Below, one piece after another: positions 38,475 through 56,832 of a stretch of 64,000 nucleotides of DNA. The position numbers and the translations under genes were made by a program. The number at the start of each line of letters is the position of its first letter. The stretch's first letter is position 1. The stretch is taken from NCBI GenBank assembly GCA_001789445.1, contig MFZQ01000013.1, forward strand, positions 4,596 to 68,595, in the 5' to 3' direction. Under the pieces are notes generated by a model, which saw only the letters and a program-made list of their open reading frames with translations, was not told the origin of the DNA and ran no database searches. The DNA is from Candidatus Roizmanbacteria bacterium RIFCSPHIGHO2_02_FULL_40_13b (GTDB lineage: Bacteria; Patescibacteriota; Microgenomatia; UBA1406; HO2-37-13b).

Positions 38475-38477
38475 ATA

Positions 38478-38615: not shown

Positions 38616-38620
38616 AGTAG

Positions 38621-38860
38621 TTACTTCCCCTCACCCCCTTTTTCTTCTTTCATTTCATTCTTTTCTACAACTTTTACCCCCTCTATATCTAAATCATCGT
38701 TCAGGGTACTTTCAAATTCCTTTTTAACTTTTTTGATCTCTCTTCCAGATTCACCGAGTCCTTTTGCCCATTCCATTAGCTTTTTTTGCCCAAATAGTAC
38801 GAGAAGTATAAATGCAATGATAACAATCTCTGTCGTGCCAAGATTATTTAAAATATTCAT
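38621..38860 (-). CDS. TatA/TatB-like subunit with extended acidic tail
   Basis: LGTTEIVIIAFILLVLFGQKKLMEWAKGLGESGREIKK followed by a charged 40-aa tail. Confidence 0.7.
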   Translation of the reverse strand: MNILNNLGTTEIVIIAFILLVLFGQKKLMEWAKGLGESGREIKKVKKEFESTLNDDLDIEGVKVVEKNEMKEEKGGEGK

Positions 38861-40245: not shown

Positions 40246-41854
40246 TTTTAGACAGAGGTAACGCTATGCTAAATGTTGAGCCTTTTCCCACTGTACTTTC
40301 TGCCGAGATTGTACCACCCATTACTGTTAAAAGCAACTTTGCAATATACAGTCCTAAGCCATGAGACTCACTTTGTGTTTGAAGCCAATTTTCTGAAGAA
40401 TAAAACTTCTCAAATATATGAGGAAGGTCTTTTTGATTAATTCCAATACCGGTATCTTTGATGTGAACTATACCCATAGTATCTGTTTTGCCATAGGTAA
40501 TAGCAATGGCTCCTTTTTTACTATACTTTATAGCGTTGTCTATCACATTTATTAAAACTTCTTTGGTTTGTTCTTTATCTGCAAAAACCATCAGTTTTTT
40601 GGGCGAAGGTAATTCTAATGCTAATTTCTTGCCCTGTAGCTTTTGTTTCGAGTCAAAAGCCACACTCCGCGACAACTCGTCCATGTCAAAGTTTGCACTT
40701 ACCATTTTAACGTTCTCGCTTTCTATTCTTGATGTTGTAAGTAGTGATTTTACAAGGCTTGACATTCTTTCACTACTATAAAGCGTTTCTTGAAGATATT
40801 TTTGTGCTTCTGTATCTATTTTTCCCACCTTTCCTGATAGTAACATGGAAGTATATCCCTTCATTAAAGCCAGCGGGGTCAGAAGTTGATGAGATGCAAC
40901 CAAAATAAAGTCATTTTCATTTTCTTGTAACTCAACATCATGTTTGAGCTGTTCCTCTTTAAGTTCCATTATTTGTGTTACTTTTTGTTGACGCCTAAGA
41001 TCAATCTTATTTAATTTGATAGTAATCCAACACATTAAAACAAAAAAAATGGAAACTAAAAAGACGTTAAAGATTGCAAATCCAAATCTAGTATTAATTA
41101 ATCCTGAATCTTGAGCCCAAAGTATTACTTTGCCTAATACTGACGGGATGATAAGAATACTTGGAAGCAATATTCTACTTATTTTACTCCCCGAGAAGTT
41201 AGAAGAAATAACTGTCATAAACCCTCTATCAGATCTGATAAGTAGCATTGCCAAGGATGTTATATAAAAAGCGATGGCAGTATTAAAAGCCATCGGTACT
41301 TGTGCCAGAACACCGTATAGATTTTGAACTGAATAGACATACCCAAGGATTGCCAAAAGCGAAATCAAATTAACTAAAAAACACAAAATATTTATTAATT
41401 TATAGTACTTATCTTTCGTCAGAAGAAATAAAGAAATGCCGATAAAGACAAAATTAAAAGCAGTGTTTGGAGCAATCCTATTTCCAAATAATTTTGATCC
41501 AAATAAAAGTTGATCTATGTGCGTATCAAAGCCAAATATAATTGCCCCGAGACTTGCGAACCCGACCACAAATACAATTATTCCAGCAAGCTGTGCAAGC
41601 CAGATAAATTTATGCATTTTTTTCTGTAGAATTATCTGAATAGATAGACCAATCAAGATAAAACAGAGAGCTGTGAGAGGATTCATAAAGATATACCCTG
41701 GTTGAAAGTTTCTGATGAAATCAATATCAAATTGCCAGCCAAATTCGGCCAGTATGCCGATTACTATTACAAACAAAGAAAATAGTGAGGCAATCTCTCT
41801 AAAAAAAGTAAGTATTCTTGAATCCTGAATTGTTTCAGTACTGTTATTGTCCAT
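40238..41854 (-). CDS. sensor histidine kinase with polytopic N-terminal sensor
   Basis: About eight TM helices, H-box VASHQLLTPL, and an HATPase region (DTGIGI, GLGLYIAK, GKGSTF). Confidence 0.85.
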   Translation of the reverse strand: MDNNSTETIQDSRILTFFREIASLFSLFVIVIGILAEFGWQFDIDFIRNFQPGYIFMNPLTALCFILIGLSIQIILQKKMHKFIWLAQLAGIIVFVVGFASLGAIIFGFDTHIDQLLFGSKLFGNRIAPNTAFNFVFIGISLFLLTKDKYYKLINILCFLVNLISLLAILGYVYSVQNLYGVLAQVPMAFNTAIAFYITSLAMLLIRSDRGFMTVISSNFSGSKISRILLPSILIIPSVLGKVILWAQDSGLINTRFGFAIFNVFLVSIFFVLMCWITIKLNKIDLRRQQKVTQIMELKEEQLKHDVELQENENDFILVASHQLLTPLALMKGYTSMLLSGKVGKIDTEAQKYLQETLYSSERMSSLVKSLLTTSRIESENVKMVSANFDMDELSRSVAFDSKQKLQGKKLALELPSPKKLMVFADKEQTKEVLINVIDNAIKYSKKGAIAITYGKTDTMGIVHIKDTGIGINQKDLPHIFEKFYSSENWLQTQSESHGLGLYIAKLLLTVMGGTISAESTVGKGSTFSIALPLSKNV

Positions 41855-41886: not shown

Positions 41887-42303
41887 TCAAAACACCAATA
41901 ACGAAACAGAGGTGTTATAAAAATAATGCAGTAATCCTGCAAGTACTATTCCTAAAAATAGTAGCCTTTTATCAAGTAATGCCGGTATCAAAATCGCAAG
42001 CGAAGTGGTAATATGTAACGGCATAGTTACCATAAATCTGAAAAGGTGTGTTTGACTCGTTGCGGGGGAAAACAAATAAAGGAAGTTTTCAGTTATCCCG
42101 AATAAAAAACCTATCAGTATTGTTGCATAGATCTTTTGACGGTTGTCGCCCGACTTTAAAATGAAGAAGATTAAAAGTGCCTTGGCTAATTCTTCCACAA
42201 TATGTGGGTAGGGAAAAAATATCTCTATCGGCCAAAGAATAAATGGTGCAATTGCCGCAAATACAGCAGTGAAAATATACATACGTTTTTGATTCTCTTT
42301 CAT
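41887..42303 (-). CDS. CPBP/PrsW-superfamily intramembrane protease-like protein (short form)
   Basis: VEELAKA, PLHITTS and LLHYFYN motifs. Paralog of 37116-37529. Confidence 0.5.
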   Translation of the reverse strand: MKENQKRMYIFTAVFAAIAPFILWPIEIFFPYPHIVEELAKALLIFFILKSGDNRQKIYATILIGFLFGITENFLYLFSPATSQTHLFRFMVTMPLHITTSLAILIPALLDKRLLFLGIVLAGLLHYFYNTSVSLLVF

Positions 42304-42361: not shown

Positions 42362-43660
42362 TCACTTAAGCGAGGCAATGGTAGCTTTGAGTTTGGCATC
42401 TTTAAGCATCTTACCAGCGGTTCCAACAGTTGCGTGACCGGCGACAACCTCATCCCATACAGCATCAGCAATTTCCGAAGCAGATGCACCGCCAGCAGTT
42501 GTTTCGATAAAGGTATCAGTACCAAGATCACGTGTGTTTCCCAGTGTATTTTTGGTGAATGTATGCCCGTTCCTGACACCAGTTCTTAGAACCCCCGTGC
42601 CAATATCAATGCCGTATCCAGTGTGTTTATAGATGAGATTATTTTCAAAAATGTTATCTGCAATGCCTGTGCCAGATAACACTACTCCATTGACATTATC
42701 ATAAATAAGACACTGTGAAACGAGGGTACGAGTGGTACTGTTTCCGAATGTAATCCCATCTCCAGTTCCAGATTTTCCATTGAGCTCAATTACTGATGAG
42801 GTAATAGTAGACCGAGTTGATGATGAAATACTAATTCCTGACCCTCGACTTCCAGTTATCCACGTATCTTTTATGAGAGCGTTATCCCCAGTTATTGAAA
42901 TCGCATTTTGTGAACCCGTGCCAGCTGTTGAAATATATATTCCGCTTAGCTCCACATTATCAGCGGTAATGTTTATTGTGGGGCTTGTGTCAAGGGTTGG
43001 TATAAGTTGGAATATATAACCCGGGCCTCGTATTTTTAAATTATTTTTGGTAACAGTAAGCGTTTCAGTTACTGTCGTTGTCCCACTGGTGTTACTACTC
43101 ATACAAAAAATAACATCATTGTTGCCGGCTATGACTAACGTTTGGGCTTGAGAAAATGTAGCCACGGCCTTGGTTGGTTTGGTTCCATCGTTTGCATCAT
43201 CTCCATTTATTGGATTCCAATAAAGATATTGTCCGACACCACGTCTTGAACCAACAAGAGATTCAACTAGATAGAGTAAATTGGTGTCTGATTCAGGTGT
43301 TGCGATAGTTGGGGAAGAGGACTGAGCGATAGTAACGGAGGTAAAGGCTGACGATGCAATAGGATTACCGCTTTCTGCTACTAAATTACCACCAGTAACA
43401 ATGCAAGCTACCGTATCTGGACCTGGACGTGCCTCAAATCGAAGCTTCCAATTATCTAAGAGTACAAGAGTAATCCCCACCGAAACACTACCGCCCAAGT
43501 TCTGTTTCCCAAATGCTTCGGCAATCTGTGAATTTGCTAACCCTGGTGTTAATTCATCTTCGGTGTCTCTGATCTCATTTATCAATGTTTGAAGATCGAC
43601 AGATGTTTGAGGAGCAGGGACCTCGATTATGCTATTGTAAAAATCGAATACAAGTGCCAT
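42362..43660 (-). CDS. right-handed beta-helix (tailspike/pectate-lyase-like) protein, no signal peptide
   Basis: Repeated ~22-aa G/N/I-rich turns (ISITGDNALIKDTWITGSRGSGISISSS... NVNGVVLSGTG...). C-terminus is EIADAVWDEVVAGHATVGTAGKML. Confidence 0.55.
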   Translation of the reverse strand: MALVFDFYNSIIEVPAPQTSVDLQTLINEIRDTEDELTPGLANSQIAEAFGKQNLGGSVSVGITLVLLDNWKLRFEARPGPDTVACIVTGGNLVAESGNPIASSAFTSVTIAQSSSPTIATPESDTNLLYLVESLVGSRRGVGQYLYWNPINGDDANDGTKPTKAVATFSQAQTLVIAGNNDVIFCMSSNTSGTTTVTETLTVTKNNLKIRGPGYIFQLIPTLDTSPTINITADNVELSGIYISTAGTGSQNAISITGDNALIKDTWITGSRGSGISISSSTRSTITSSVIELNGKSGTGDGITFGNSTTRTLVSQCLIYDNVNGVVLSGTGIADNIFENNLIYKHTGYGIDIGTGVLRTGVRNGHTFTKNTLGNTRDLGTDTFIETTAGGASASEIADAVWDEVVAGHATVGTAGKMLKDAKLKATIASLK

Positions 43661-43704
43661 AGATTAATCATATCAAAGATTATATAGAGAATAGAATAAA
43701 GTTA

Positions 43705-44208
43705 TTAATTTAGGTCTTTTTCTATATATTTAACTCTATCAAGCTGTCCTTCTAATGTCAGTTTCGCGGTAGTTTCTATCCATTGTAAAAAAGGGCCAGG
43801 GAATATTTTTTTCTCCTCACGAAATAAATTAACGACCTCCAAGACTGCTTTTTGATTACCAACAATAATTGGTCCACGTTCAGTTCCTACTGAAGTATCG
43901 ACGATCTCAAATAGGTCGCTATTTAGGAGCTCTTTATAGAGTGGATCATTTTTAATCATGCTAATATACATTGGAGGATCGGTAATTTGAACGAGTGGAA
44001 AAAAGTCTTCGATTACAAAAAACCATTGCCCGTTTTTGTGTGTTCTACGAATGATTTCTCCGTAATAAGAAAGATCATCATAAAAAACGACAGGGGAGGG
44101 AGGGGGATTTTGAATAGGTTTAGGACCGTTCACATGCTTTATACTCATAAACCTTCCTCCTGGTCCTCGAACTGGTTTATTCTTTGTGTCTAAGGTATCA
44201 GTGCTCAT
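43705..44208 (-). CDS. Bro-N/DinD-like DNA-binding domain protein
   Basis: IIRRTHKNGQWFFVIEDFFPLV ... IVGNQKAVLEVVNLF ... FPGPFLQWIE resembles the Bro-N antirepressor-type pattern. Confidence 0.4.
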   Translation of the reverse strand: MSTDTLDTKNKPVRGPGGRFMSIKHVNGPKPIQNPPPSPVVFYDDLSYYGEIIRRTHKNGQWFFVIEDFFPLVQITDPPMYISMIKNDPLYKELLNSDLFEIVDTSVGTERGPIIVGNQKAVLEVVNLFREEKKIFPGPFLQWIETTAKLTLEGQLDRVKYIEKDLN

Positions 44209-44215
44209 ATTCTCA

Positions 44216-46189
44216 TCAGGTTACGATTGTATCAGTTGTTCGGATTGCAGAGGTAGAGAATCCGGTTGAGCCAAATGTACCCGTTGTTTCAAATGGTAAA
44301 ATGGCAACTGATGCTTTTCGTCGCACCCGAAGAAGTATTGTTCGGTCTGAAACGTAGATAACCTGAACCGTGATAGAAGTAGAGCTTGCCTGCTCGTCGA
44401 TAAATGGCACATACGCTTTATCATCTGACGCCGTATACGACCGGTCTAGAGTGGGGGAGACACCCGAAAATGTCGATCCACTCCATGAAGTATAGGTGTA
44501 ACGGGTTTCTCGAGTTGCCGTCAAATCACTCGTGTCAACGAGTCTGATAGCTCCAGACGACGGAGTATCATTTGAAATAGCACCAGATACAACAACTGTT
44601 GAATTACCCGAGTTGTTACCTGCGGCTAATGAATACATTGCCTTATCGATAGTGGTACCTGAAGTTGTTCTGAAAACTGACACTCTATCGCCGGAAAGAA
44701 GGTTGGTGATAGTAACACTCTGTTTATTAGGTGGCGTTCTTGTCACACCGTTCGCATCAATCAGTTGGAAGTTCTGAACATCAGCCGCCGCCATATTTTC
44801 GATCCAGACACCTTGGGCACCGAAGAATTTTCCTCCAGCGAAAGTTCCAAGAGGAGAGGCTTTAACTGGTGAGTATGTATTATCAGGAGTGGTTTGATTA
44901 TCTTCATGAGCCCGAATATATTGTTGTCCCTGCAGGGCGCTGTGGGTAATGGCGCCTCCTTGGGCTTTGGCGGTTGGATAGGTACTAAATGTCGAACCAA
45001 CACGAGTGACATATTTAAAATATTCATACGCTTGAGTTAATACTCGGGTAGCACAACCGATAATAACCGAGTAGGGGAAAGATGAACCCTGTTCGAAATT
45101 CTTACTCATAGTATATGCTTCAGTTAAAGTAGAGGAGGACGTAGCTGTAGCACTTGAAGTACCGCCGGTAATGACATTGGTACCATTGAATGTCCCAACT
45201 ACATTACCCAAAGTCATAGTCCCTGCCCCCGTTGTCGTCGTTTGATATAAAAAGATACCAGTGGCGCCAGAAACAGCTTGAGATACAGGCTCTAAGTTGG
45301 TAAATGCCCCACTTATCGCGCTGTAGGTAAGGGTGCCATTGACAAAAGCGATTGTAATATCGCTATATCCTGAAACAGTCGCAGTAGCGGTCAGGTTATT
45401 AAGGTCAGGAGACGTGGCCAACGGTACCGCATTTCGGCCACCTGCGGTAAGATCGATTCCAAAGTGATCGTATAAATCGGCACTACCTCCTGCTGGATAG
45501 TGGCGTAAAAATACGGTAATTTTAGCGAGGTCAATTTCAGTTCCGGCCTCTTTAACTTTAATGAGTACATCAATTTGTCTGGTACCGGCACCTGTTTCAG
45601 GCCACCATTCAGTAAGTCTTGCCCCATTTTGAATGATATATATTTGCTGTGTATCATCTTCTTCAATAGATCCAAGAGTGTAGACGTTAGGATAGAGATT
45701 TTCACCGGTAACCGAGGCTCCGTTGGCATCACCTGCACCAGTACCCGTTGATATCGTCATAACGGAGTTATTGGCTATAGTTGAAGCAGAACGAATCCAC
45801 CATTTATTGAGCGTATTGTCATAGGCAAGCAGCTCTCCAGCTCCGCCTCCGTCGTCCAAAACCGTCTTGCCAATATCGCCTGCCACAGCGTTAACGTAGG
45901 TGCCATCAAGTAGTAATATCTGAATTGCCCCGCTATAACCGCTTGTTTGTATAGCACCACCCTTTAAATATTGAAATGAAGGTTCGTCCATAAACCAACC
46001 ATTGATGAGTGTGTAGTCGGTAGGAGTTTGGGCTGACATTGGAATTGTATCATCCATCTGCGCAAGTTCATCAAACGTATCTTGCAGGTATGAGTAGAGC
46101 GCATTTACGGTATAAACATTACTATTTGCGGAATGATAAACGCGTTTATTTACGTAATCAATTGTAAAATCAGAGCTAATTGTTGCCAT
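44216..46189 (-). CDS. large Thr/Ser/Gly-rich fibre-like protein, no signal peptide
   Basis: 657 aa, beta-rich composition. The C-terminal ~42 aa are homologous to the C-terminus of 47160-49967. Confidence 0.5.
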   Translation of the reverse strand: MATISSDFTIDYVNKRVYHSANSNVYTVNALYSYLQDTFDELAQMDDTIPMSAQTPTDYTLINGWFMDEPSFQYLKGGAIQTSGYSGAIQILLLDGTYVNAVAGDIGKTVLDDGGGAGELLAYDNTLNKWWIRSASTIANNSVMTISTGTGAGDANGASVTGENLYPNVYTLGSIEEDDTQQIYIIQNGARLTEWWPETGAGTRQIDVLIKVKEAGTEIDLAKITVFLRHYPAGGSADLYDHFGIDLTAGGRNAVPLATSPDLNNLTATATVSGYSDITIAFVNGTLTYSAISGAFTNLEPVSQAVSGATGIFLYQTTTTGAGTMTLGNVVGTFNGTNVITGGTSSATATSSSTLTEAYTMSKNFEQGSSFPYSVIIGCATRVLTQAYEYFKYVTRVGSTFSTYPTAKAQGGAITHSALQGQQYIRAHEDNQTTPDNTYSPVKASPLGTFAGGKFFGAQGVWIENMAAADVQNFQLIDANGVTRTPPNKQSVTITNLLSGDRVSVFRTTSGTTIDKAMYSLAAGNNSGNSTVVVSGAISNDTPSSGAIRLVDTSDLTATRETRYTYTSWSGSTFSGVSPTLDRSYTASDDKAYVPFIDEQASSTSITVQVIYVSDRTILLRVRRKASVAILPFETTGTFGSTGFSTSAIRTTDTIVT

Positions 46190-46313
46190 TTGTTATTTTT
46201 CTAAAAGTTACAGTGTTAATGATGAATATGACTTTGAATTAGTATAGAGTCTGTTAATAATGACTGTCAAGGACTTTCGTATTTTTGTTATATTTAATCG
46301 GAATTTGATATAT

Positions 46314-46514
46314 TTAATCCGAATTTGATATATTCAATTTTTCTACCTTTTCTATATCGAGATTATATTGTGTATAAAAATCCGTATGTTTGTTATCTGT
46401 ACAAAAACATTCACCCAATGGATTTCTTGCTCTCCAACAACCTATAGAATTGCATTTAGTCTGTGTTTCAGACATTTTTCCACAGCCACCAATACAAACG
46501 AAATGAGGTTTCAT
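46314..46514 (-). CDS. small Cys-rich protein (putative metal-binding ribbon)
   Basis: FVCIGGCGKMSETQTKCNSIGCWRARNPLGECFC: seven Cys in 30 residues. Confidence 0.45.
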   Translation of the reverse strand: MKPHFVCIGGCGKMSETQTKCNSIGCWRARNPLGECFCTDNKHTDFYTQYNLDIEKVEKLNISNSD

Positions 46515-46546
46515 ATATAATATATGTTACAGTACCATGATTTGAT

Positions 46547-47173
46547 TCAATATTCAATAATAATGTTATACGGAAGTTTTAAAGCGTGTACGGTAAAAAA
46601 TGTATCGAGTTCTCGAATAAAGGCAATCTTTTCCAATTCATCTTTATTGTTGGGTATAAATAGTTGATTAAAAATAACACGAGTAGCTATTTTCTTTAAT
46701 TTGAGTAAAAATGGCAAAGATGAAATAGATGTTGGTTGTTCACCACCTAGATAGCAATCAACAACAACTAGATCAAAGATTCTTGTGTCATCAAGTTTGT
46801 TTACATAATCTACTGCATCCCCAATAATAATACCGACTCCTTTGATATTTGCTGGAAAATACTTTTTTGCAATTTTTATCATTTCGGGATCAATTTCTAT
46901 TCCTGTTACAATTGTTTTTTCCCATATACTTTTTATCGTCTTCATTATTGATCCTGCTCCAAAGCCTAAAATGAGTATTTTAGTGTGTTTTTTATTTTTA
47001 TACAGCTTATCAAATACTTCGTCCCACAAAAACTCAATATCTGATCCCGACTGTGCAAATTTACCTACGATAACTGAATAATTGTCGTTTTTTTCAACTA
47101 CACGAATAACATCGTTATATTCAGAATGAAAAAGCTCTATATTTTTATGTTGCATGATTTTATGCACTCGCAA
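46547..47173 (-). CDS. class I SAM-dependent methyltransferase-fold protein (spermidine-synthase-like)
   Basis: ILILGFGAGS ... GIEIDPEMIKIAKKYF ... DLVVVDCY pattern. Confidence 0.6.
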   Translation of the reverse strand: MRVHKIMQHKNIELFHSEYNDVIRVVEKNDNYSVIVGKFAQSGSDIEFLWDEVFDKLYKNKKHTKILILGFGAGSIMKTIKSIWEKTIVTGIEIDPEMIKIAKKYFPANIKGVGIIIGDAVDYVNKLDDTRIFDLVVVDCYLGGEQPTSISSLPFLLKLKKIATRVIFNQLFIPNNKDELEKIAFIRELDTFFTVHALKLPYNIIIEY

Positions 47174-49967
47174 TGGTATCTACGATGAGGGTGACCGTTG
47201 TTGTGAACCCCGTTGATGTAATTGTTCCAGTCGAATCGTTTACAAAATATTTTGTATCGCCTGATGATGATTTCCTAACTCTTAGATAGATATCTGTATT
47301 ACTAATGTAATTAAATGTTGTACTTGATGTGCCATTTGTTGCAGTGCCGGTACCGGTTCCAACACCAGTTGCTGTAAATACTAGACCCACCGTATTCGAA
47401 GAGGCTCCAATTAACGTATAGTCTGTTGAACCGATTGTAAGAATCTTATATTTAATACCAATTACAAATGATCCAGCAGTCACGGTTTCGGTATCTTGGT
47501 TCATAAGTTCGCTATTATCACTTGTCTTATAAATGGCAGTCTGGGCAGATTGAATAGGTTTACCAAGGGTATCTACAACGGTTACTTTCAATGTGACTGC
47601 ATTGTTGATTGTAGTTGAAGAACCATCTGATTCTCGGACACTGGGAGTAGAACCACCACTAGTGATGTTAAGAGTTAAAGATCCTCCAGTATTATTGTAA
47701 ATTGCTGCTCCGGCTGAATAGAGATGGTGTGTTTCGGCACCTGCCGCTGTAAGATTAGCTCGTCCAGTAGCCCCACCAGAAATAGCATGGGCGGCGGTAT
47801 CATACAGAGTAATAGTTGTACTTGATTCGCTTCGAACATAGTATAGGTTTCCGTCCGTTAATCCTACATTCTGCGTGCCTCCCTGATCTTGATAATAAGC
47901 TGGATCGCCATTGGTGTACCCATGAACAGCATCAAGTGTTATTACGTCAGTACTGGTATTGATTCCAGAAGAACTTGTAAGAAAAGTTCGTTCAACTGGA
48001 CCAAATGCCGTAAATGTATTACCCGCAAACGAGTAGGTGCCGGCAGTGGTAACGCGAATAGCGTGGCCAGTTGTAGAGGATCCAGTAAAAGTATTATTTT
48101 CAAATATTACAGGTGAGGAGACAGAACTCCATCTGTTTCCAGCCGTCACTCCGGTGACATTAATCGAGGACCCACTTATAACGGTTGAACCATTTGTCGT
48201 TAGTGTGTCATTCCCTGCTGGTACTCTTGAAATGGTTGCACTTGTAATTGTGCAACTTGAAAAATTCAACGTCGGACAAGATGAAAATGCCATTGAATTG
48301 AACGTCATCACATTGCGAAGAGTAACGTTTGCGCCCACGATAACAAGACCGGTAAAATCCCATGTTGCAGCACTCGTTGCCGCCGAGTTAATCTCCCAAT
48401 AATAAGTTGTTGGAGAGGTGACAACCGAATTAGTGTGTTTGACTACATCGCCACTTTTTCCTGCATAACTAATTCCAATGGTGTTATCGGCTGCGTGATA
48501 TTGTAATTCTTTCTTAGATGTATCTGCGCGGCGCGGAAATTGGAGTGAACCGGCATCAATTTGAAAATTTACTGCATCACCTCCACCTATTTGAATAGGG
48601 ACAAAGGACAATATTCCTGTAGAACCTACCTTTTGAATTACTGGGAGGCGAAAACTTTGGCCAATTTCTGACATTCCGTCCGTGTCAACCGGGTTGTTGG
48701 TATCTCCGCCGGCGACTATTTGTGTTTGAACCTGATGCAGTTCGGACATATAGACCGTTGAGGAGAAGGATGGGGCATTGCGCAAAAATTGGATATAGGT
48801 GACGCTAGTAGTTGTGGCGCTCCCACTTGAGCCAGTGTCATAGTCGGACCCGGCGTATCCGGCCTGAATGGCAAACACACATCTTTGCACCGGGTTTGGC
48901 ACAGAGTTTTTTGCAGCGACTTGATAAGCGTTCCAGTTATTGGCACCACTGGCGACGCGCACCACAACACCACCTTGATCAATTGTTCCAATACCAAATG
49001 CACCCATTTTCGGAGTACCTGCTATGAAACTCCCGCAAATTAGGCCGGTAGAAAGATCACGTCCACTTGTTAGTACTAGTTCTGGTCCGGTTAAAGCAGT
49101 CCTGGCTGTGGCTGCCGCAGATGAGTTTACAGCGTTTGAATAGGGGTTGATGCCAAAATCTGCACCATTGGCGGCTGTTGCCTGAGTTAGTGTCTTTCCA
49201 TTGATAGTCGCGGTGACGACATAGGAACCAGAAGCAGAGTAACTGATGTTATTTATGGTGGAAACATGATGACCACAGGTAAGTCGTGTTCCCGGAGAAG
49301 TAGAATCATCTACATACGCAGGAATTTGTCCGCCCGAAGTGTTACGTAGCGCAAAAGTTATTCGGACATAAACAGCAGAAACGCTAGATGACCAGTTTGC
49401 TACCGGTGTTGCTCCGGTTGCCCGTTGGATATACCAAGCTGCTGCCTGATGAGACGAGGTGGTGGCGGTAGTGCCCGTTGAGTCGGCGTTGTAAATTGAC
49501 ATCACTCCCGGATCAGACAGCACTTGTGGTGTTGTGCTGTCTTGAGCGATATGAAAGACCACCAAGGCATCCGTTGTCCCTGTTGTCACCGAAGAATTAA
49601 CCGGCGTTGTCGTGGCAGTTCCCACTCCGGCATGTAGCGGCGTCACGCCGTCAAAAGGGGTCGTAGTATCCACGTCACGGTAGCAATAAATACCACAAGT
49701 ATAAGCATCCGCAGTTGTGAGTGTCAATGTTTCTGTGCTACCTGTTGCCAATACGTAGTATAAATAACTTATTGTGCCTTGTGTTACTGGGTTGGTAGGT
49801 GCACTGGGGAGAGCCGCCCATGATGATCCAGCTATGGTGATGGTGCCGGAGTCCACTGTAATATGCGCAATCAGGATGTCATTTGCTTGGTGTGCAGGCA
49901 TGTTTTGAGCAATGCTTGTAATCGCGCCGCTAACACCACTCTGTGCATGCTCTACGAAATATGCCAT
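47160..49967 (-). CDS. very large Thr/Ser/Gly-rich fibre-like protein, no signal peptide
   Basis: 935 aa, beta-rich. C-terminal YLRVRKSS...STGFTTT module shared with 44216-46189. Confidence 0.5.
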   Translation of the reverse strand: MAYFVEHAQSGVSGAITSIAQNMPAHQANDILIAHITVDSGTITIAGSSWAALPSAPTNPVTQGTISYLYYVLATGSTETLTLTTADAYTCGIYCYRDVDTTTPFDGVTPLHAGVGTATTTPVNSSVTTGTTDALVVFHIAQDSTTPQVLSDPGVMSIYNADSTGTTATTSSHQAAAWYIQRATGATPVANWSSSVSAVYVRITFALRNTSGGQIPAYVDDSTSPGTRLTCGHHVSTINNISYSASGSYVVTATINGKTLTQATAANGADFGINPYSNAVNSSAAATARTALTGPELVLTSGRDLSTGLICGSFIAGTPKMGAFGIGTIDQGGVVVRVASGANNWNAYQVAAKNSVPNPVQRCVFAIQAGYAGSDYDTGSSGSATTTSVTYIQFLRNAPSFSSTVYMSELHQVQTQIVAGGDTNNPVDTDGMSEIGQSFRLPVIQKVGSTGILSFVPIQIGGGDAVNFQIDAGSLQFPRRADTSKKELQYHAADNTIGISYAGKSGDVVKHTNSVVTSPTTYYWEINSAATSAATWDFTGLVIVGANVTLRNVMTFNSMAFSSCPTLNFSSCTITSATISRVPAGNDTLTTNGSTVISGSSINVTGVTAGNRWSSVSSPVIFENNTFTGSSTTGHAIRVTTAGTYSFAGNTFTAFGPVERTFLTSSSGINTSTDVITLDAVHGYTNGDPAYYQDQGGTQNVGLTDGNLYYVRSESSTTITLYDTAAHAISGGATGRANLTAAGAETHHLYSAGAAIYNNTGGSLTLNITSGGSTPSVRESDGSSTTINNAVTLKVTVVDTLGKPIQSAQTAIYKTSDNSELMNQDTETVTAGSFVIGIKYKILTIGSTDYTLIGASSNTVGLVFTATGVGTGTGTATNGTSSTTFNYISNTDIYLRVRKSSSGDTKYFVNDSTGTITSTGFTTTVTLIVDTIASA

Positions 49968-50876: not shown

Positions 50877-52016
50877 ATGAAGATTAAAAGACTTCTAGAA
50901 GATGAAATCTTGGCTCAATTAGAGAGCAGTACTAAGGGCATAGTTATTTATGGTCCACGCCAAGCAGGAAAAACTACTTTGGTTAACGACATATTAACAA
51001 AAAGGAAATGGAAAACTCTTATTCTAAACGGAGATAGGCGCGGGAATTGGTGGGAGACTATCACAAGTCGCGAGTTATCAAAAATAAAACTGCTCTTAAG
51101 TGGTTACCAAACTTTGTTTATTGATGAAGCCCAGAGGATACCTGAAATAGGCTTGAGTCTAAAAATTATCTTAGATGAGTTCCCAGATTTGAAAGTGATT
51201 GTTACTGGTTCTTCCTCGCTTGATTTGGCTAGTAAAATTAGTGAACCATTAACGGGTAGAATTATTACGCATAAGCTGTATCCTATTTCTTTTGTTGAAC
51301 TAAATACAATCTTCACTCCTTTTGAATTACTAGAAAATCTTGAGGAACGGATGATTTTTGGATCTTACCCGGAAATATTTTCTTTACATGGAATTTTAGC
51401 AAAAACTGAATATCTGATGAATCTCACAGATACCTATCTTTATAAAGATTTATTGGAATTTGGGGGAATAAGAAATTCAAACAAAATCAGAGATTTATTG
51501 AAACTATTGGCTTTTCAGATTGGTTCACAGGTATCTTTGTCAGAATTAGGAAACAGTTTGGACTTGAGCAGGACCACTGTGGATAGATATATCGATCTTT
51601 TGGAAAAATCATTTATCGTATTCAGATTAAGTGGATTTAGTCGCAATTTACGTAAAGAAGTTTCTAAAATGGACAAAATATATTTCTATGATATCGGGGT
51701 AAGAAATACTATAATAGGTAATCTAAATTTTCTAAACAACCGCGATGACCAAGGTAAATTATGGGAGAATTTTTTAATGATAGAACGAATCAAACGACAA
51801 CAATATGCTCATACATTATACGGATGTTATTACTGGCGCCTGTCAAGCGGGGCAGAAATTGATTTAGTCGAAGAAGAAGGTGGGCAATTATCGGGTTTTG
51901 AGTTTAAATATACAAAGAAAACGATCAGATCTCCTAAGTCTTGGTTGGAAACGTACTCTAACTCTACATTTCATACCATCAACAAAGATAATTTCTTGGA
52001 TTTTGTGACGATTTAA
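50877..52016 (+). CDS. AAA-type ATPase with C-terminal DUF4143-like region
   Basis: GPRQAGKTTL Walker A and LFIDEAQ Walker B. The C-terminal half looks like the widespread AAA_14/DUF4143 architecture. Confidence 0.65.
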   Translation: MKIKRLLEDEILAQLESSTKGIVIYGPRQAGKTTLVNDILTKRKWKTLILNGDRRGNWWETITSRELSKIKLLLSGYQTLFIDEAQRIPEIGLSLKIILDEFPDLKVIVTGSSSLDLASKISEPLTGRIITHKLYPISFVELNTIFTPFELLENLEERMIFGSYPEIFSLHGILAKTEYLMNLTDTYLYKDLLEFGGIRNSNKIRDLLKLLAFQIGSQVSLSELGNSLDLSRTTVDRYIDLLEKSFIVFRLSGFSRNLRKEVSKMDKIYFYDIGVRNTIIGNLNFLNNRDDQGKLWENFLMIERIKRQQYAHTLYGCYYWRLSSGAEIDLVEEEGGQLSGFEFKYTKKTIRSPKSWLETYSNSTFHTINKDNFLDFVTI

Positions 52017-52474
52017 GCCTCTTCGTCTGAGTCAGTTTCATATGGATCGGCAATCAGATTTTTATGAGCAGTCTTAATTATCGCCAAAATCATATATATT
52101 ATGGCAGGAATAACAAGGATGACACCAGAAAAGGCGAGTGAAAGATTCCATTGAAGTGAGATATTATTTGTATGCGTAGCGATTTGCTGAATTGCAAAAA
52201 GCTCCATGAGTGCGGCAAGTATAAAAACAACAACCGATTGCAAGCTGTATTTGTTTTCTCCCAAAGAAGTTATTGTTATAACAATACTTATAAATATTGC
52301 AACAGTTTTAACTCCAACAGAAACGGCAGTAAATGGATACGTTGAAAGCATGACTGGTGTGAGAAATTCAAACGGTGATCCAATTGTAAGTGAAAGTGGT
52401 CCGGATAAAATATCTAGTACATATCCAAAAATAACTAATCCTACTGCGCCGGTAAGAAAATATTCAGTTTTCAT
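52013..52474 (-). CDS. hypothetical four-TM membrane protein
   Basis: Hydrophobic helices and an acidic C-terminal tail. Confidence 0.45.
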   Translation of the reverse strand: MKTEYFLTGAVGLVIFGYVLDILSGPLSLTIGSPFEFLTPVMLSTYPFTAVSVGVKTVAIFISIVITITSLGENKYSLQSVVVFILAALMELFAIQQIATHTNNISLQWNLSLAFSGVILVIPAIIYMILAIIKTAHKNLIADPYETDSDEEA

Positions 52475-52958
52475 TTCCAGGTACTGTATTATTCATAACG
52501 GTTGCATTATGTATATTATGCGACAATACATATTGGGATGTTTTGTCAGGTTTAAGATCAAATTTTTTATCTACAGTGAGGGAATTATGCGTATTTTCAA
52601 TCACATTCCTCACTTGACCTTCCCCAGTTCCACGAGATATCCATACGGGAAAGCCTTTGTATATTCCTGGTTTCCACTTCTTGGTTTTATCGATAATTGT
52701 GGTTACTGTTGCATGAGAAACAACTCCTAAATCATCGTGAGCCGGCTGTTTACTTTTTTTTACAATATGTATGAGGTTTGGATTGTTTTGAATAAAATCA
52801 TCAACCGGGTACCACTCAAAATATGTTGCGGGTGCAGTTCTATTTGATGCGAACTCAACTCGAACATATCCAGGGTAGGTCATATCATGCGTTATGTTCA
52901 AACATTCTCGAAGAGAACCATTTATATCTGTAACGGTAAGCTGATGTTTAATTGGCAT
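52464..52958 (-). CDS. hypothetical soluble protein
   Basis: 164-aa ORF overlapping the next gene by 11 nt. No motif recognised. Confidence 0.45.
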   Translation of the reverse strand: MPIKHQLTVTDINGSLRECLNITHDMTYPGYVRVEFASNRTAPATYFEWYPVDDFIQNNPNLIHIVKKSKQPAHDDLGVVSHATVTTIIDKTKKWKPGIYKGFPVWISRGTGEGQVRNVIENTHNSLTVDKKFDLKPDKTSQYVLSHNIHNATVMNNTVPGNEN

Positions 52959-52989: not shown

Positions 52990-53643
52990 TTAAAATATTG
53001 AATTAAAATAATCATAGGTGAGAACTGCTCTGTCGGTCCAATTGGTTGAAAAACTACTTGTTCCTTTGACATATCGATATGCACCCGTAGCGTCTTCCTT
53101 AATTATATACCACGCTCCGTCTTTATTTACATATCCATAATAAGAAGGAATTGCATCATCAATTTGTGAGATATTATACCCATCAGTTGGTTTTTTTTCG
53201 GACGGATCAATCAAGGTTCCTGTCGAATCTTTAATACCGACTGTTCCTGGCCCCGGATTACTTCCAAAAAAAGCGGCTTCGGCTTTACCGGTAAAAATCG
53301 ACAATAAAAAAACAGATACACCGGCAGAGCCAATGAGTCGTAAAAACATACGCCGATTATCATCTACTTTTTTTTCCTCATGTTGATCAATACGCGTTAA
53401 TGTAATTGGCTTTTTTTCAGTCTCGATATCTGCTTTCTGTATTTTTTTGGTAACAACTTTTTCTGTGGGTAATTTGGAAGGAGCATATTTAGTTGCAGTG
53501 ATGATACTTCTCCAAAAGTACACCATGAGTGGAAAAAAAATAATGCTACTGATAAGTTGGGGATAAGATGTCGTATCTACAAATCCAATTACTGTTATTA
53601 CAGTAATGACGACAACATTGTATAAAATAATTATTTTTTTCAT
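52990..53643 (-). CDS. 2-TM-module protein with internal twin-arginine-like motif
   Basis: N-terminal 2-TM module, then DNRRMFLRLIGSAGVSVFLLSIFTGKAEA at about residue 95, then a beta-rich ~100-aa domain. Confidence 0.5.
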   Translation of the reverse strand: MKKIIILYNVVVITVITVIGFVDTTSYPQLISSIIFFPLMVYFWRSIITATKYAPSKLPTEKVVTKKIQKADIETEKKPITLTRIDQHEEKKVDDNRRMFLRLIGSAGVSVFLLSIFTGKAEAAFFGSNPGPGTVGIKDSTGTLIDPSEKKPTDGYNISQIDDAIPSYYGYVNKDGAWYIIKEDATGAYRYVKGTSSFSTNWTDRAVLTYDYFNSIF

Positions 53644-54185
53644 TTTTCTTTTAGAATAAATTCTTTATTAATCCAGGCTGAAGTAGAAGCATCTAGTTGA
53701 ATTTCGACCCAATTAATACTAGTTGAAATAACTGTATATTTTTTTCCACCCATAGCTTTTCCGATTACTTTTGACAACGTTGATGGGTTTTTTCGTAAAT
53801 TCACCCATGAGTCTCCTGCTTTTTCCGTGTCAATTTCAACATAGTTGGGTATTGGAGTTGGAATTATTTTGGTTGGAAGCATTTTTTGCCAGGTACTAAT
53901 AGGTTTTTTTTGATGGGCACTCGACTGTATTTTATAAAAGGAAAAAGAACTCAAAATAATAAGGGAACAAATTATCACGACGAATGTATTTCTAGTGGAG
54001 ACATTTGTTGGAATTGGTGTTTTATTAAAGATAGCGCGCAATAAATAATAGGTGAAATAACCAGTTATAGGTAATAAAATAATAAAAAATAAGGGATTAC
54101 CAGTCTGCAATAAAAGAAAAGCACCGGTAACAGACAAAAATACACTTATTAGTGTGCAGTACCCAAAAAAAAGCTTTTCAACCAT
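53640..54185 (-). CDS. 2-TM-module protein with C-terminal SH3b-like domain
   Basis: Same N-terminal module. C-terminus WVNLRKNPSTLSKVIGKAMGGKKYTVISTSINWVEIQL is SH3b-like. Confidence 0.5.
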   Translation of the reverse strand: MVEKLFFGYCTLISVFLSVTGAFLLLQTGNPLFFIILLPITGYFTYYLLRAIFNKTPIPTNVSTRNTFVVIICSLIILSSFSFYKIQSSAHQKKPISTWQKMLPTKIIPTPIPNYVEIDTEKAGDSWVNLRKNPSTLSKVIGKAMGGKKYTVISTSINWVEIQLDASTSAWINKEFILKEK

Positions 54186-54194
54186 ACATATAGT

Positions 54195-54707
54195 TTATTG
54201 GCCAGTATTTAATAATTTCTTTATTTCAGGATTGATGGTTGCTTCAGGAGTACTTGGTGTGTAAGAAGTCTCCAATTCTATTTTATTCAAATTACTTTCT
54301 ATAATATCGAGTTTTGTTACGATTTTTTCAATTAATGCAGTATTGCCTTTAAGCGATGCTACATCAGACTGAATTTTAGATAACTCAAAAGAAAGATCTG
54401 CCGGTGAGTTTTTCTTTGGCTGTATAGAAAGGATTGAGATATAGAAAATAATACTCGCGGTACTTATCAACAATGCTATTGATAAGATTCCTGCAAATGT
54501 TGATTTGTTAGAAACATGCTCTGGTGAATTTATTTCAGAATGAGGAATCTTTCCTAATACAAGAATCCAAAAGTATATACTGATAGGGAGTATAAAGAGC
54601 GCTAATAGAAACCCAATTGGTTTTGATGTAAAAATGCATGACCAAATAATAAGTCCAGTTGAAATAATCAAACTATAGTATGCAAGAATGGTGTGGTATT
54701 TTCTCAT
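54195..54707 (-). CDS. 2-TM-module protein with a third TM and a coiled-coil tail
   Basis: Same N-terminal module (LPISIYFW). Confidence 0.45.
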   Translation of the reverse strand: MRKYHTILAYYSLIISTGLIIWSCIFTSKPIGFLLALFILPISIYFWILVLGKIPHSEINSPEHVSNKSTFAGILSIALLISTASIIFYISILSIQPKKNSPADLSFELSKIQSDVASLKGNTALIEKIVTKLDIIESNLNKIELETSYTPSTPEATINPEIKKLLNTGQ

Positions 54708-54783
54708 AGGTGTTACTACAGTTACATTATGAATGTTTCATCAAAAAAAAGCAATCGGATGTACGTACTGTATAATAGGAATT

Positions 54784-56832
54784 ATGAATCGTAAATATAC
54801 TCCTAAAGATATAGAACCTAAAATCGCACAATCCTGGGACGATGAAAATATCTATAAGTCAATTCCCCCTATCTCCCAAACCCCTCCTCCCCCAAACCCT
54901 AAAAAGGCATATATCTTAGTCATGTTTCCATATCCTTCAGGCGAGGGTCTGCATACGGGGCATGCGCGAGTTTATACGGGAACAGATGTCCTTGCTCGTT
55001 TTTTTCGTATGAAAGGAAAATCAGTACTTCACCCAATGGGATTTGACGCTTTTGGTCTTCCTGCCGAAAATGCCGCAATTAAGCTCCAAAAAAATCCAAT
55101 AGATATGGTTCCTGAAAATATTGCAAATTTTAAGCGACAAATGAAGCTCCTGGGCTTATCGTATGATTGGAGTAGGGAATTTTCCACAACAGATCCGGAA
55201 TATTACAAATGGACACAGTGGCTTTTCATTCAATTTTTCAAAATGGGGCTTCTTCATAAGAAAGAAACACCAATATTCTATTGCCCAAACTGTAAAACAG
55301 GACTTGCGCAGGAAGAAGTCTTGGAAGATGGGACGCATGAACGATGTGGGACAGCTGTTGAAGAGCGCAACTTGCCGCAGTGGATTTTTCGAATCACTAA
55401 GTATGCTGACAGACTTCTCGATGATCTTGAAGGTCTTGATTGGCCAGCCGGGATATTACAAATGCAGAAAAATTGGATAGGGAAGAAAGTGGGGAAATCT
55501 GGGGAGTCAACATATCATTTGCGAGATTGGATTTTTTCACGACAACGATATTGGGGGGAACCGATACCGATGATTTTTTGTGATAAATGCGCTGAAAAAA
55601 AAATCAACTACTGGGAAGGGGATAGGAGTAGAGGAGTAGATCATAACAATAATGAAGTGGAACAAATGATATCAGGATTTGTGGATGAAGTGAAGGATGA
55701 TTTATATGGATGGTTTCCGGTTGAAGAGAAGGATTTGCCCTTAAAACTTCCCTATGTGAAAAGTTATATGCCAACGGAAAGTGGGCAGTCGCCCTTGTCG
55801 CAAATTGAAGAGTTCGTACATACAACGTGTCCACATTGTGGTTCAGATGCTCGAAGAGAAACAGATACAATGCCCAACTGGGCAGGAAGTAATTGGTATT
55901 TCTTGTATTTTGGCCGTCAGCATGACAAAACTCGCCCACCGTCTTTACAAAATTGGAAAACAGAGATCGGGGATCCATCTGCCCAGTGGCTTCCAGTGGA
56001 TTGGTATCTGGGTGGGGCAGAGCACGCGGTGCTTCATCTTCTGTACGCACGATTTTGGGTCAAAGCGATGAAAGATATAGGACTTGTTTCTTTCAGTGAG
56101 CCCTTTGCCAAGCTTCGAAGTGTGGGAATGGTCCTTGCGTCCGATAATCGAAAAATGAGCAAGTCGCTTGGAAATGTAGTAAATCCGGATGATGTGGTTT
56201 CCGAATATGGAGCCGATACATTACGGGTGTATGAGATGTTTATGGCGCCATTTGGCCAAGAAGTTGCCTGGTCAGAAAGTGCAATCCAGGGTGCCTACCG
56301 ATTTTTGCAAAGAATTTGGCAGATATTCATAAGCTCTGATAGTATAACAGAAAATCAGGATGAGGAAAACTTTGAACTAGTTGCCGAGCTTCAAAGTACC
56401 ATTTCAAGGATCGAGTCAGATATCACGAACGTGAAATTTAATACATCTATTTCAACAATGATGGAATTCATCAATTTGTGGGAAAAAAAGAAGTTATCCC
56501 GTCAGAGTAGTGCAAAGTTCCTACAAATACTTGCCCCATTTGCTCCATTTATGACCGATTATTTATGGAGAGAAATCTTAAAAAATAAAGAATCAATTCA
56601 TATTTCTACATGGCCGAGTGTTGATAAATCGGTAATTTCTATCAAAAAAGTTACCATAACGATTCAAGTTAATGGCAAAATGAGGGGGGTAATTTCGTTC
56701 GAAAATGGGGACGTGGAGGAAAAAGAGGCCATTGAAGAAGCCCTAAAGCTAGAAAATGTGAAAAAATATGTCGTCGATGATACTTATAAAGTAATCTACG
56801 TCAAAGAGAGAGTATTGAACTTTGTAGTTTAA
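54784..56832 (+). CDS. leuS: leucyl-tRNA synthetase lacking the CP1 editing domain
   Basis: PYPSGEGLHTGH (HIGH), KMSKS, NWIGKKVGKSGESTYHLRDWIFSRQRYWGEPIP. 682 aa. Start moved to the ATG at 54784. Confidence 0.85.
   Translation: MNRKYTPKDIEPKIAQSWDDENIYKSIPPISQTPPPPNPKKAYILVMFPYPSGEGLHTGHARVYTGTDVLARFFRMKGKSVLHPMGFDAFGLPAENAAIKLQKNPIDMVPENIANFKRQMKLLGLSYDWSREFSTTDPEYYKWTQWLFIQFFKMGLLHKKETPIFYCPNCKTGLAQEEVLEDGTHERCGTAVEERNLPQWIFRITKYADRLLDDLEGLDWPAGILQMQKNWIGKKVGKSGESTYHLRDWIFSRQRYWGEPIPMIFCDKCAEKKINYWEGDRSRGVDHNNNEVEQMISGFVDEVKDDLYGWFPVEEKDLPLKLPYVKSYMPTESGQSPLSQIEEFVHTTCPHCGSDARRETDTMPNWAGSNWYFLYFGRQHDKTRPPSLQNWKTEIGDPSAQWLPVDWYLGGAEHAVLHLLYARFWVKAMKDIGLVSFSEPFAKLRSVGMVLASDNRKMSKSLGNVVNPDDVVSEYGADTLRVYEMFMAPFGQEVAWSESAIQGAYRFLQRIWQIFISSDSITENQDEENFELVAELQSTISRIESDITNVKFNTSISTMMEFINLWEKKKLSRQSSAKFLQILAPFAPFMTDYLWREILKNKESIHISTWPSVDKSVISIKKVTITIQVNGKMRGVISFENGDVEEKEAIEEALKLENVKKYVVDDTYKVIYVKERVLNFVV

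Follow-up and report, generated by a model that had tools for sequence, protein, structure and literature searches.

A conserved envelope operon of Microgenomates with a shared two-helix hairpin and a candidate internal twin-arginine signal

Few protein families are known to enter the membrane by dual Sec/Tat insertion. The described examples are the actinobacterial Rieske protein Sco2149/QcrA, the heme-MoCo protein Sco3746, a polytopic polyferredoxin and a YkuE-type metallophosphoesterase (PMC3471235; PMC5449189), and the families of the 2017 survey were picked for a metal cofactor-binding domain (PMC5449189). Their hand-over from Sec to Tat is driven by the low hydrophobicity of the last helix together with positive charges at its C-terminal end (PMC5449189; PMC7317946). 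In E. coli Tat signals, even conservative Lys substitutions for Arg are poorly tolerated (PMC7317946). Outside the redox enzymes, FecR is a Tat-inserted protein with an internal RR motif (PMC12036975). Here we describe a small membrane protein, the product of gene C, which on sequence grounds is best read as a variant of the dual Sec/Tat-integrated membrane proteins that apparently lacks a cofactor.

The window, that is, the whole stretch of DNA that was analysed, comprises 64,000 nt of Candidatus Roizmanbacteria bacterium RIFCSPHIGHO2_02_FULL_40_13b (contig MFZQ01000013.1, 4,596-68,595; Table 1). An earlier note on this DNA had described three tandem minus-strand genes that start with one 2-TM module, and all three ORFs, here called A, B and C, are found where it placed them, each with TM1, a short Pro-containing loop and a TM2 motif (LPISIYFW in A, LPITGYFT in B, FPLMVYFW in C); the stop of B and the start of C overlap in ATGA. 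A profile of C-family hairpins reaches A at E=1.6e-7 already in the first round, and after one iteration the module profile matches all three proteins, spanning residues 1-54. Direct BLASTP of A or B against C is not significant, the relation being visible in profiles only. Among 940 ORFs searched, the matches are confined to the A, B and C positions, with none in the other 70 ORFs of the window or in ~750 other ORFs of 63 related loci; the modules thus align far better than random TM pairs. In a set of 5.8 billion proteins, B as a query recovered only itself and a 50-sequence module profile gave no match at E<=0.1, the module being too short for a database of such size. Judged by the profiles, the hairpins of A, B and C are homologous, peculiar to these genes, and no chance pairing of TM helices.

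Table 1. Features of the window discussed in the text; the Pfam TatA_B_E E-values listed for the three tatA genes are 1.5e-10, 1.7e-13 and 3.6e-18
Feature	Residues or size	Position (nt)	Strand	Basis
Gene A	170 aa	54195-54707	minus	ORF
A, 2-TM module	2-54	54546-54704	minus	module profile E=4e-16
A, third TM helix	~68-94	54426-54506	minus	
A, helical, coiled-coil-like tail	~100-146	within 54195-54707	minus	
Gene B	181 aa	53640-54185	minus	ORF
B, 2-TM module	1-52	54030-54185	minus	module profile E=2e-11
B, third TM helix	~64-84	53934-53996	minus	
B, SH3_3 (SH3b) domain	128-177	53655-53804	minus	Pfam SH3_3 E=7.3e-9
Gene C	217 aa	52990-53643	minus	ORF
C, 2-TM hairpin module (helices 2-22 and 27-52)	1-52	53488-53643	minus	module profile E=4e-17; AlphaFold pLDDT ~90
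C, Lys-rich, disordered, putatively cytoplasmic linker	53-94	53362-53487	minus	pLDDT <50 for residues 57-89
C, internal Tat-type signal DNRRMFLRLIGSAGVSVFLLSIFTGKAEA	95-123	53275-53361	minus	conservation; TIGR01409
C, outer domain and stop codon	124-217	52990-53274	minus	invariant alignment columns; AlphaFold model
Gene D, soluble, no signal peptide or TM helix	164 aa	52464-52958	minus	ORF
Gene E, membrane protein reading as ~four TM helices	153 aa	52013-52474	minus	ORF
tatA		38621-38860	minus	Pfam TatA_B_E
tatA		38478-38615	minus	Pfam TatA_B_E
tatC		37722-38474	minus	Pfam TatC E=5.8e-37
tatA		37536-37679	minus	Pfam TatA_B_E
PrsW-like intramembrane protease		37116-37529	minus	Pfam PrsW-protease E=5e-9
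Tat locus as a whole (three TatA, one TatC encoded)		37116-38860	minus	

The likeness of the three proteins extends beyond the hairpin, and the common plan of A, B and C is a hairpin, a linker, a third helix and an outer domain. In A and B a third hydrophobic helix lies at the position equivalent to that of C, without RR and with Lys-Lys after it; since it occupies the same place, a plain TM3 looks like the ancestral state. The earlier note did not have this third helix of A and B. It had assigned three different C-terminal parts, and the SH3b-like domain of B (SH3_3, 36.1 bits against a gathering cut-off of 27) and the beta-rich domain of C, a small beta meander in the AlphaFold model, are both recovered; for the coiled coil, A offers a helical tail that is coiled-coil-like. 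No Tat-signal match occurs in A. The A of the window has no SH3 domain, and its positional counterparts in relatives carry coiled-coil-like segments together with SH3_3.

In C, the place of the third helix is taken by the internal segment that had been noticed at about residue 95 and likened to a Tat signal. Its RR codons lie at nt 53350-53355 (residues 97-98) within the motif N-R-R-M-F-L-R, and they are followed by a 17-residue uncharged h-region, a basic c-region and AxA. The linker before it varies in length and sequence across the family, judging from the variable alignment columns, and reaches ~250 aa in one relative (L073). Could the signal be N-terminal after all, C giving rise to two products of which one is a separate Tat precursor made from an internal start? 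The first residue of some database entries (P0072, P0145, P0231) does lie shortly before the RR pair, or is Met99 behind it, and yet the window has no in-frame ATG, GTG or TTG between TM2 and the pair, as the earlier note had observed for the stretch just upstream, while Met99 comes after it. The residues before RR are not start-compatible across the family either (F, Y, I and V occur), and hairpin and outer domain share one ORF in all 64 genomic copies of C. We consider such a second product hardly credible. Homologs of C with an apparent N-terminal Tat signal were also considered and set aside: the short entries are miscalled or truncated genes, the contig of P0231, for instance, encoding in one ORF a full protein with two hairpins, and the signal is never N-terminal in the family. 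In every readable homolog, the pair stands behind one to three 2-TM hairpins (two, four or six helices).

The motif itself is deeply conserved. The C family is confined to Microgenomates, its profile matching 2022 representatives at 50% identity, and in 146 of 150 diverse representatives (50% identity) the pair is (R/K)R, so the expectation that homologs would keep it is borne out, but KR is unusually frequent (67, against 79 with RR); RK and KK never occur. Across the 146 motif-bearing sequences the second Arg is invariant, the family motif reads (R/K)-R-x-F-(L/I)-(K/R), and a basic residue always follows the h-region; FLK follows the pair in 118/150. A longer block, D-x-(D/N)-(R/K)-R-x-F-(L/I)-(K/R) ... 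K-K-A-E-A|A-F-F-G-S, is present in all but three of the 120 nearest homologs; two of the exceptions are truncated and the third is anchored on another FFGS. The 64 genomic copies have an uncharged h-region of 16-18 aa and, without exception, one or two basic c-region residues. A more hydrophobic h-region does not significantly offset KR (1.81 vs 1.73, p=0.056). When the 940 ORFs were scanned with a loose RR motif, no canonical RRxFLK candidate appeared outside the C family, only ordinary TM flanks.

It is possible, though unlikely enough that we do not favor it, that the third helix of C is an ordinary TM anchor inserted by Sec/YidC, and that (R/K)RxFLK is a juxtamembrane motif of the family that only resembles a Tat motif and is maintained by something else, for example contact with a partner or the positive-inside rule. 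The RR-less third helices of A and B, the KR pair in 46% of the diverse representatives and an outer domain without cofactor signature speak for such an anchor. Positive-inside flanks, however, exchange K and R freely, and here neither the second Arg nor the F at +2 nor the K/R at +4 varies; furthermore, Sec insertion is disfavoured by so short an uncharged stretch (16-18 residues) that always has basic residues on its outer side (PMC5449189). Summed on the Hessa scale, the third helix scores +1.8 vs -0.3 for TM1 over the 64 genomic copies. The final helix is also weakly hydrophobic and positively charged at its C-terminal end, the combination named in PMC5449189, and the other features of Sec/Tat dual proteins, an even number of helices before RR and a motif directly before the final helix, are likewise found in C.

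Scores from TIGR01409, the curated NCBI model of the Tat signal (cut-off 16.7 bits; matches counted at E<=10), bear on the anchor explanation from both sides. The segment of the window reaches 13.9 bits, below the cut-off, and appears only when excised and not in the scan of the whole protein. On the other hand, the internal position is matched in 29 of 42 homologs, of which P0019 (19.4 bits) and P0079 (18.0 bits) exceed the cut-off at residues 84-118, and the model reaches fewer than two of 73 flanking membrane proteins, a control from which C is thereby separated. With its basic flanks on both sides and positive hydrophobicity sum, the segment does not behave as an ordinary TM helix, as the earlier reading required.

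AxA suggests a further alternative, in which the segment is an internal Sec-type signal peptide whose cleavage yields a secreted 94-residue protein, the hairpin being an SRP-targeting pro-region and Tat playing no part. Signal peptides typically have an h-region this short, the site follows RR at a constant 27-28 aa, with (A/T/S)-x-(A/G) at -3/-1 in 64/64 genomic copies, and one relative (L001) has a signal peptidase gene divergently upstream. Such adjacency is not general, though: with the L001 enzyme as the query, L013 was the only further locus recovered. Basic c-region residues are a Sec-avoidance feature (PMC7317946), and paired arginines are very rare in Sec signals, at 0.02% in E. coli (PMC7317946). 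A divergent subfamily lacks AxA (e.g., RRGVP|FFGS) yet keeps (K/R)RxFLK; thus cleavage is not a family-wide feature of C. Taken with these points, a Sec-cleaved product appears very improbable.

What lies beyond the segment is small. The outer domain starts with AFFGSxPGPGTV... and continues, in the AlphaFold model, as a four-strand beta meander with short helices. Although conserved, it has no structural or sequence relative in the PDB and matches no Pfam, NCBIfam or PHROG family, the cofactor families of the first two included, and none of the invariant columns of the family alignment is a Cys or His. A domain of this size, with neither conserved Cys/His nor a cofactor match, presents no evident reason for export in folded form.

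Downstream of C, the end of gene D runs 11 nt into E. The partner found most constantly with C is E, a homolog of which lies directly downstream in 48/63 loci and in 61/80 of a second set; D, with homologs next to C in 22/63 and 29/80, is an accessory member of the cluster. Neither has a significant family match, D having been searched against Pfam, PHROG and others. Large beta-helix or fibre-like proteins adjoin the cluster in 27/63 loci, with counterparts in the window at 42362-49967, and the cluster is syntenic across Microgenomates classes beside core genes. A-B-C-(D)-E, running from 54707 down to 52013 on the minus strand, is an uncharacterised, conserved envelope operon. A reading as prophage or lysis cassette, with holin-like TM proteins and SH3b, was discarded given this synteny and the lack of any PHROG match for C, D, E and the large neighbours. 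In proteins of the C family with two hairpins, the first hairpin scores as B-type in 14/17, and their loci less often keep a separate module-bearing gene upstream (7/17 vs 35/46).

The window also encodes a Tat system, 14.5 kb from the C cluster. Aligned with Aquifex TatC (4B4A), its TatC keeps Glu at both aligned motifs, FLMEVRRR and PALTKKEFR, and these two we take to be the glutamates that bind the RR pair. Of the 63 species loci, nine have tatC at most 6 kb from C, and the binomial values for this linkage (1e-7 to 4e-3) ignore phylogenetic clumping. In L076, tatC starts 4 nt after the stop codon of C; L061 has the order tatA, A, C, E, tatC; and in L077 a tatC paralog lies directly upstream of the cluster. 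A second sample, of metagenome loci of at least 10 kb, gave linkage in 1/30 only. The linkage of tatC is real in divergent clades, clade-restricted and not general. The tie to the expanded Tat locus that the earlier note drew thus gains partial support from the genomes, tatC or tatA adjoining the cluster in several divergent lineages but not in close relatives. The same pattern weighs in both directions on a third helix inserted as a plain Sec anchor, the operon-adjacent tat genes against it and the weak linkage in close relatives for it.

Taken together, an internal Tat-type helix following Sec-type helices, as the earlier note proposed, is supported by computation; loss of the motif in homologs, a third segment scored as ordinary TM helix and modules aligning no better than random TM pairs were each looked for and each came out the other way. 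We think it probable, if well short of assured, that the locus is one operon of hairpin-sharing envelope proteins in which C is inserted by Sec and then by Tat, with Tat exporting its C-terminal domain. The hydrophobic hairpin would be inserted co-translationally by Sec/YidC with the N-terminus inside, leaving the Lys-rich linker in the cytoplasm. The third segment, with its 16-18 uncharged residues, is short, weakly hydrophobic and trailed by one or two basic residues, and would therefore be one whose insertion Sec cannot complete. Subsequently, (R/K)RxFLK would be bound by TatC, and the TatAC translocase would move the ~95-residue C-terminal domain across the membrane. Whether A-x-A is then cleaved by signal peptidase with release of the domain, or stays uncleaved in a three-helix anchored protein, seems about equally likely. 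The hairpins of A, B and C may pack together in the membrane, as supported by the natural fusions of a B-type hairpin to C, and such packing could bring peptidoglycan-binding SH3b domains, the coiled coil, the C domain and E together in a single envelope complex. A bolder and improbable extension is that C is the principal, perhaps ancestral, Tat cargo of Microgenomates, its domain escorting folded partners without signals as hitch-hikers while the hairpin holds the assembly next to A and B, the SH3b wall-binding proteins. Candidate hitch-hikers would be the soluble D and the large beta-helix or fibre-like neighbours; in the window, the large proteins at 44216-46189 and 47160-49967 carry no signal.

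If dual insertion of C is true, the protein extends the dual Sec/Tat principle to a cofactor-free protein and to the candidate phyla radiation, and it does so by a modular design: a 2-TM cassette that can be repeated stands ahead of a consensus Tat signal, perhaps a cleavable one. C would be a concrete candidate substrate for the Tat systems kept by metabolically minimal Microgenomates. Because low hydrophobicity and trailing positive charges are both found in every member, the family could serve as a natural, independent test of the hand-over rules proposed by Tooke et al. (PMC5449189). Were the escort idea true as well, it could account for the retention of Tat in organisms that export no redox enzymes, and a cleavable internal Tat signal would be a new export design.

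How does the locus stand beside what has been described? First, the membrane-anchored SH3 proteins (SH3_3; TIGR04211 SH3_and_anchor) resemble B and the A-position proteins of relatives, which combine a single SH3b domain with membrane helices and, in many cases, a coiled coil; here, though, the anchor is an N-terminal hairpin plus third helix, TIGR04211 scores far below its cut-off, and the A of the window has lost the SH3 domain. Second, canonical N-terminal Tat signals (S/T-R-R-x-F-L-K; TIGR01409, PF10518) share with C the n/h/c regions, the RRxFLK motif, a Gly/Ser/Ala-rich h-region of 16-18 residues, a basic c-region and AxA, whereas the segment of C lies 90-350 residues into the protein, behind 2-6 TM helices, and has Asp or Asn in place of Ser/Thr before RR. 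Third, the E. coli sigma regulator FecR (PMC12036975, citing Passmore 2020) likewise has an internal twin-arginine motif, at residues 79-80, and no redox cofactor, its helix being inserted and its folded C-terminal part exported by Tat, as proposed for C; it is also a precedent for the use of Tat where partners must stay associated. FecR differs in that a soluble cytoplasmic domain, and not Sec-inserted helices, precedes its RR, that it has no sequence or fold relation to C, and that it cleaves itself, no such site being known in C. Finally, the dual Sec/Tat proteins and C alike begin with an even number of Sec-type helices and a cytoplasmic loop, have a consensus twin-arginine motif directly before a last, weakly hydrophobic helix with positive charges after it, and end in a globular domain outside. 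In C, by contrast, this domain is tiny and without a detectable cofactor site, the preceding helices form a repeatable 2-TM cassette (one to three copies) common to neighbouring genes, most members have AxA right after the helix, KR is about as common as RR, and the hosts are Microgenomates with minimal metabolism.

Genes A to E run on the minus strand from 54707 to 52013 with only tiny gaps or overlaps between them (B stops and C starts within one ATGA, and D and E share 11 nt), and this layout is that of an operon. C is 100% identical to hypothetical protein A3D80_03010 of Candidatus Roizmanbacteria bacterium RIFCSPHIGHO2_02_FULL_40. E lies 3′ of C in 48 of 63 loci from GTDB species representatives and in 61 of 80 loci from a second sample, and D in 22/63 and 29/80, respectively; both genes upstream of C usually carry SH3_3 in relatives, the first of them also a coiled-coil-like segment. 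D sits between C and E here and is found in roughly one in three related loci; it may be a chaperone for C, or a hitch-hiker with it. Directly downstream of E, the opposite-strand ATPase gene looks like an insertion: in several relatives this place is taken by a convergent gene for a conserved membrane protein (about 130 aa, MYNH...), and a similar ATPase lies near the cluster in related locus L076. At the other end, the leucyl-tRNA synthetase probably starts at Met18 (MNRKYTPKD...), judging by the shape of its N-terminus, which would leave about 75 nt for divergent promoters.

Features of the window, in window positions
Feature	Position	Strand	Remarks
Gene A	54195-54707	minus	
Gene B	53640-54185	minus	
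Gene C	52990-53643	minus	
Gene D	52464-52958	minus	soluble, 164 aa; no family assignment found
Gene E	52013-52474	minus	
Tat locus	37116-38860		order tatA, tatA, tatC, tatA, PrsW-like protease
PrsW-family paralog	37116-37529	minus	137 aa
PrsW-family paralog	41887-42303	minus	138 aa
743-aa protein	34896-37127	plus	abuts Tat locus; Sec-like signal, Cys-rich N-terminal region, C-terminal TM helix
Histidine kinase and response regulator	39877-41854	minus	between Tat locus and second PrsW paralog
Large protein	42362-43660	minus	no signal peptide; Beta_helix/NosD
Large protein	44216-46189	minus	no signal peptide
Large protein	47160-49967	minus	no signal peptide
AAA_14 + DUF4143 ATPase	50877-52016	plus	
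Leucyl-tRNA synthetase	54733-56832	plus	listed start 25 nt from A start

First, the module at the head of A, B and C is real and, within the sampled DNA, specific to this trio. As the earlier note had proposed, all three begin with two helices and a short Pro-containing loop, with (L/F)P(I/L)xxYF(W/T) in the second helix. Because pairwise BLASTP was weak (E=0.001 for A against B, no significant match of either to C), a hairpin profile was built on 63 homologs of C and searched against 940 ORFs, comprising the 63 related loci and the window. A was matched at E=1.6e-7 in the first round, and after one iteration A, B and C aligned at 4e-16, 2e-11 and 4e-17, each over residues 1-54. Matches fell on C in 63/63 loci, on the next gene upstream in 42/62 and on the second in 12/61, with none elsewhere among these ORFs, many other membrane proteins included. 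A third hydrophobic helix, overlooked in the earlier note, is present in A (about residues 68-94) and B (64-84); the three proteins share an order of hairpin, linker, third helix and outer domain, and the third helix is Tat-like in C, not in A or B. In 17 loci C carries two hairpins, the first being B-type by score in 14, and a separate module-bearing upstream gene is rarer there, a fusion pattern which suggests that the hairpins work together.

Second, the twin-arginine helix is a conserved property of the C family, which has many full-length members; those with named records span Microgenomates (Roizman-, Ames-, Woese-, Davies-, Collier-, Levy-, Gottesman- and Woykebacteria). The C profile retrieved 2022 matches at E <= 1e-3, 188 of them at E <= 1e-30, from 1.84 billion representatives. 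All but three of the 120 nearest homologs contain D-x-(D/N)-(R/K)-R-x-F-(L/I)-(K/R)-L-I-G-S-A-G ... F-T-K-K-A-E-A|A-F-F-G-S, and of the exceptions two are truncated and one is anchored on another FFGS. Among 150 representatives at the 50% identity level, 146 bear the motif, followed by FLK in 118; the second Arg is constant, the pair reading RR in 79 and KR in 67 (RK and KK in none). A basic residue comes straight after the h-region in 146/146. Across 64 genomic copies, the uncharged stretch spans 16-18 residues (exactly 16 in 50) and is always followed by one or two basic residues, RR-to-AxA spacing is constant at 27-28 residues, and positions -3/-1 are always (A/T/S)-x-(A/G). A simple sum on the Hessa biological hydrophobicity scale gives +1.8 for the third helix and -0.3 for TM1 in these copies. 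Such features are the ones given for signal peptides in the Tat literature (PMC7317946), and the helix also fits the published hand-over rule for dual Sec/Tat proteins, low hydrophobicity and trailing positive charges (PMC5449189). C may be cleaved at AxA, which is fixed in the main family and lost in a divergent branch that still has (K/R)RxFLK.

The signal is internal throughout. In all 67 loci with a readable gene the motif comes after one or two hairpins, and in longer representatives after up to three; short database entries in which the signal looks N-terminal are gene-calling artefacts, and on the P0231 contig the complete protein, two hairpins included, is encoded. In the window's C, the stretch from TM2 to the RR pair contains no in-frame start codon. 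An AlphaFold2 model (42-sequence alignment, mean pLDDT 74.9) predicts the hairpin with confidence (helices at 2-22 and 27-52). A disordered linker (57-89) leads to the RR helix (95-118), which breaks at Gly119, and after a loop comes a small domain at about residues 157-217, also confident, in which a four-strand meander is combined with short helices. Neither Foldseek nor sequence search found a relative in the PDB, and family searches gave the domain no assignment.

The NCBIfam model TIGR01409 (TAT_signal_seq) matches at the internal position in 29 of 42 homologs, two of which (P0019, 19.4 bits; P0079, 18.0 bits) exceed the curated cut-off of 16.7; the window copy reaches 13.9 bits and is found only as an excised segment. 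In a control scan of the A-, B- and E-type membrane proteins on the flanks (73 in all), TIGR01409 was absent from the families matched by at least two of them. The main rival, that the third helix is an ordinary TM3 whose motif happens to look Tat-like, is improbable in our judgement, though it keeps some weight from the frequent KR variant, the sub-threshold window copy, the lack of a visible reason for folded export of the C domain, and the plain third helix with which A and B manage.

Third, the proposed tie between the trio and the Tat locus is supported in part. Compared with Aquifex TatC, the window TatC keeps Glu at both aligned motifs; these are the two residues to which the RR pair binds. 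Of the 63 loci from GTDB species representatives, 9 have a tatC homolog no more than 6 kb away from C: in L076 it starts 4 nt past C on the same strand, L061 has the order tatA, A-like, C, E, tatC, and L077 has one tatC paralog directly upstream of the cluster and another downstream. Binomial values range from 1e-7 to 4e-3 by choice of null, an enrichment at face value with cases clumped in divergent clades, but among the 30 loci (10 kb or longer) of metagenome close relatives in the second sample, tatC is linked in just one; we therefore count the linkage as supportive but not strong. Of the two short PrsW-family intramembrane protease paralogs, one immediately follows the final tatA; PrsW-like genes also adjoin tatC in L055 and L069, and in L061 and L076 they occur close to the cluster. 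A possible role would be processing of a Tat substrate or its membrane remnant. Homologs of the 743-aa protein stand beside tat and the C cluster in L061 (839-2626) and L076 (848-3487).

Unbiased clustering of genes around C placed tatC in 10 loci, sensor kinases in 30 (these or dCache proteins being the commonest non-cluster neighbours), large proteins lacking signal peptides in 27 and excisionase-type HTH proteins in 15. In 27/63 related loci, homologs of the 44216-46189 and 47160-49967 products follow C at a distance of a few genes, an N-terminal MALVF.F type occurring in 8; none of the three large window proteins has a PHROG match, and only the 42362-43660 product has a Pfam match. The HTH genes stand upstream, at the cluster head (among them L062, L064, L066-L068 and L076); the L076 protein (4315-4899), the single example read throughout, has two hydrophobic helices at its C-terminal end, and the homolog P0218 fuses two HTH domains to a KR helix and C domain. 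Their position and this fusion hint at a membrane-tethered regulator tied to the complex.

Finally, the best-supported reading is that C belongs to the dual Sec/Tat-integrated membrane proteins. Insertion of the hairpin would fall to Sec/YidC; the third helix, short, weakly hydrophobic and charge-flanked, would evade Sec, TatC would bind it, and Tat would then move the small C domain outward. The literature searched held no description of the C family, and a study of freshwater CPR bacteria reports TatA and TatC in Microgenomatia, naming no substrates (PMC9166423). The suggested precedent of actinobacterial Rieske proteins, a class with Sco3746 and polyferredoxin (PMC3471235, PMC5449189), applies to the design of action, which is the same, but not to the cofactor usual in that class, as no Cys or His is conserved in the C domain. 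FecR is a case of Tat insertion via an internal RR motif beyond the redox enzymes (PMC12036975).
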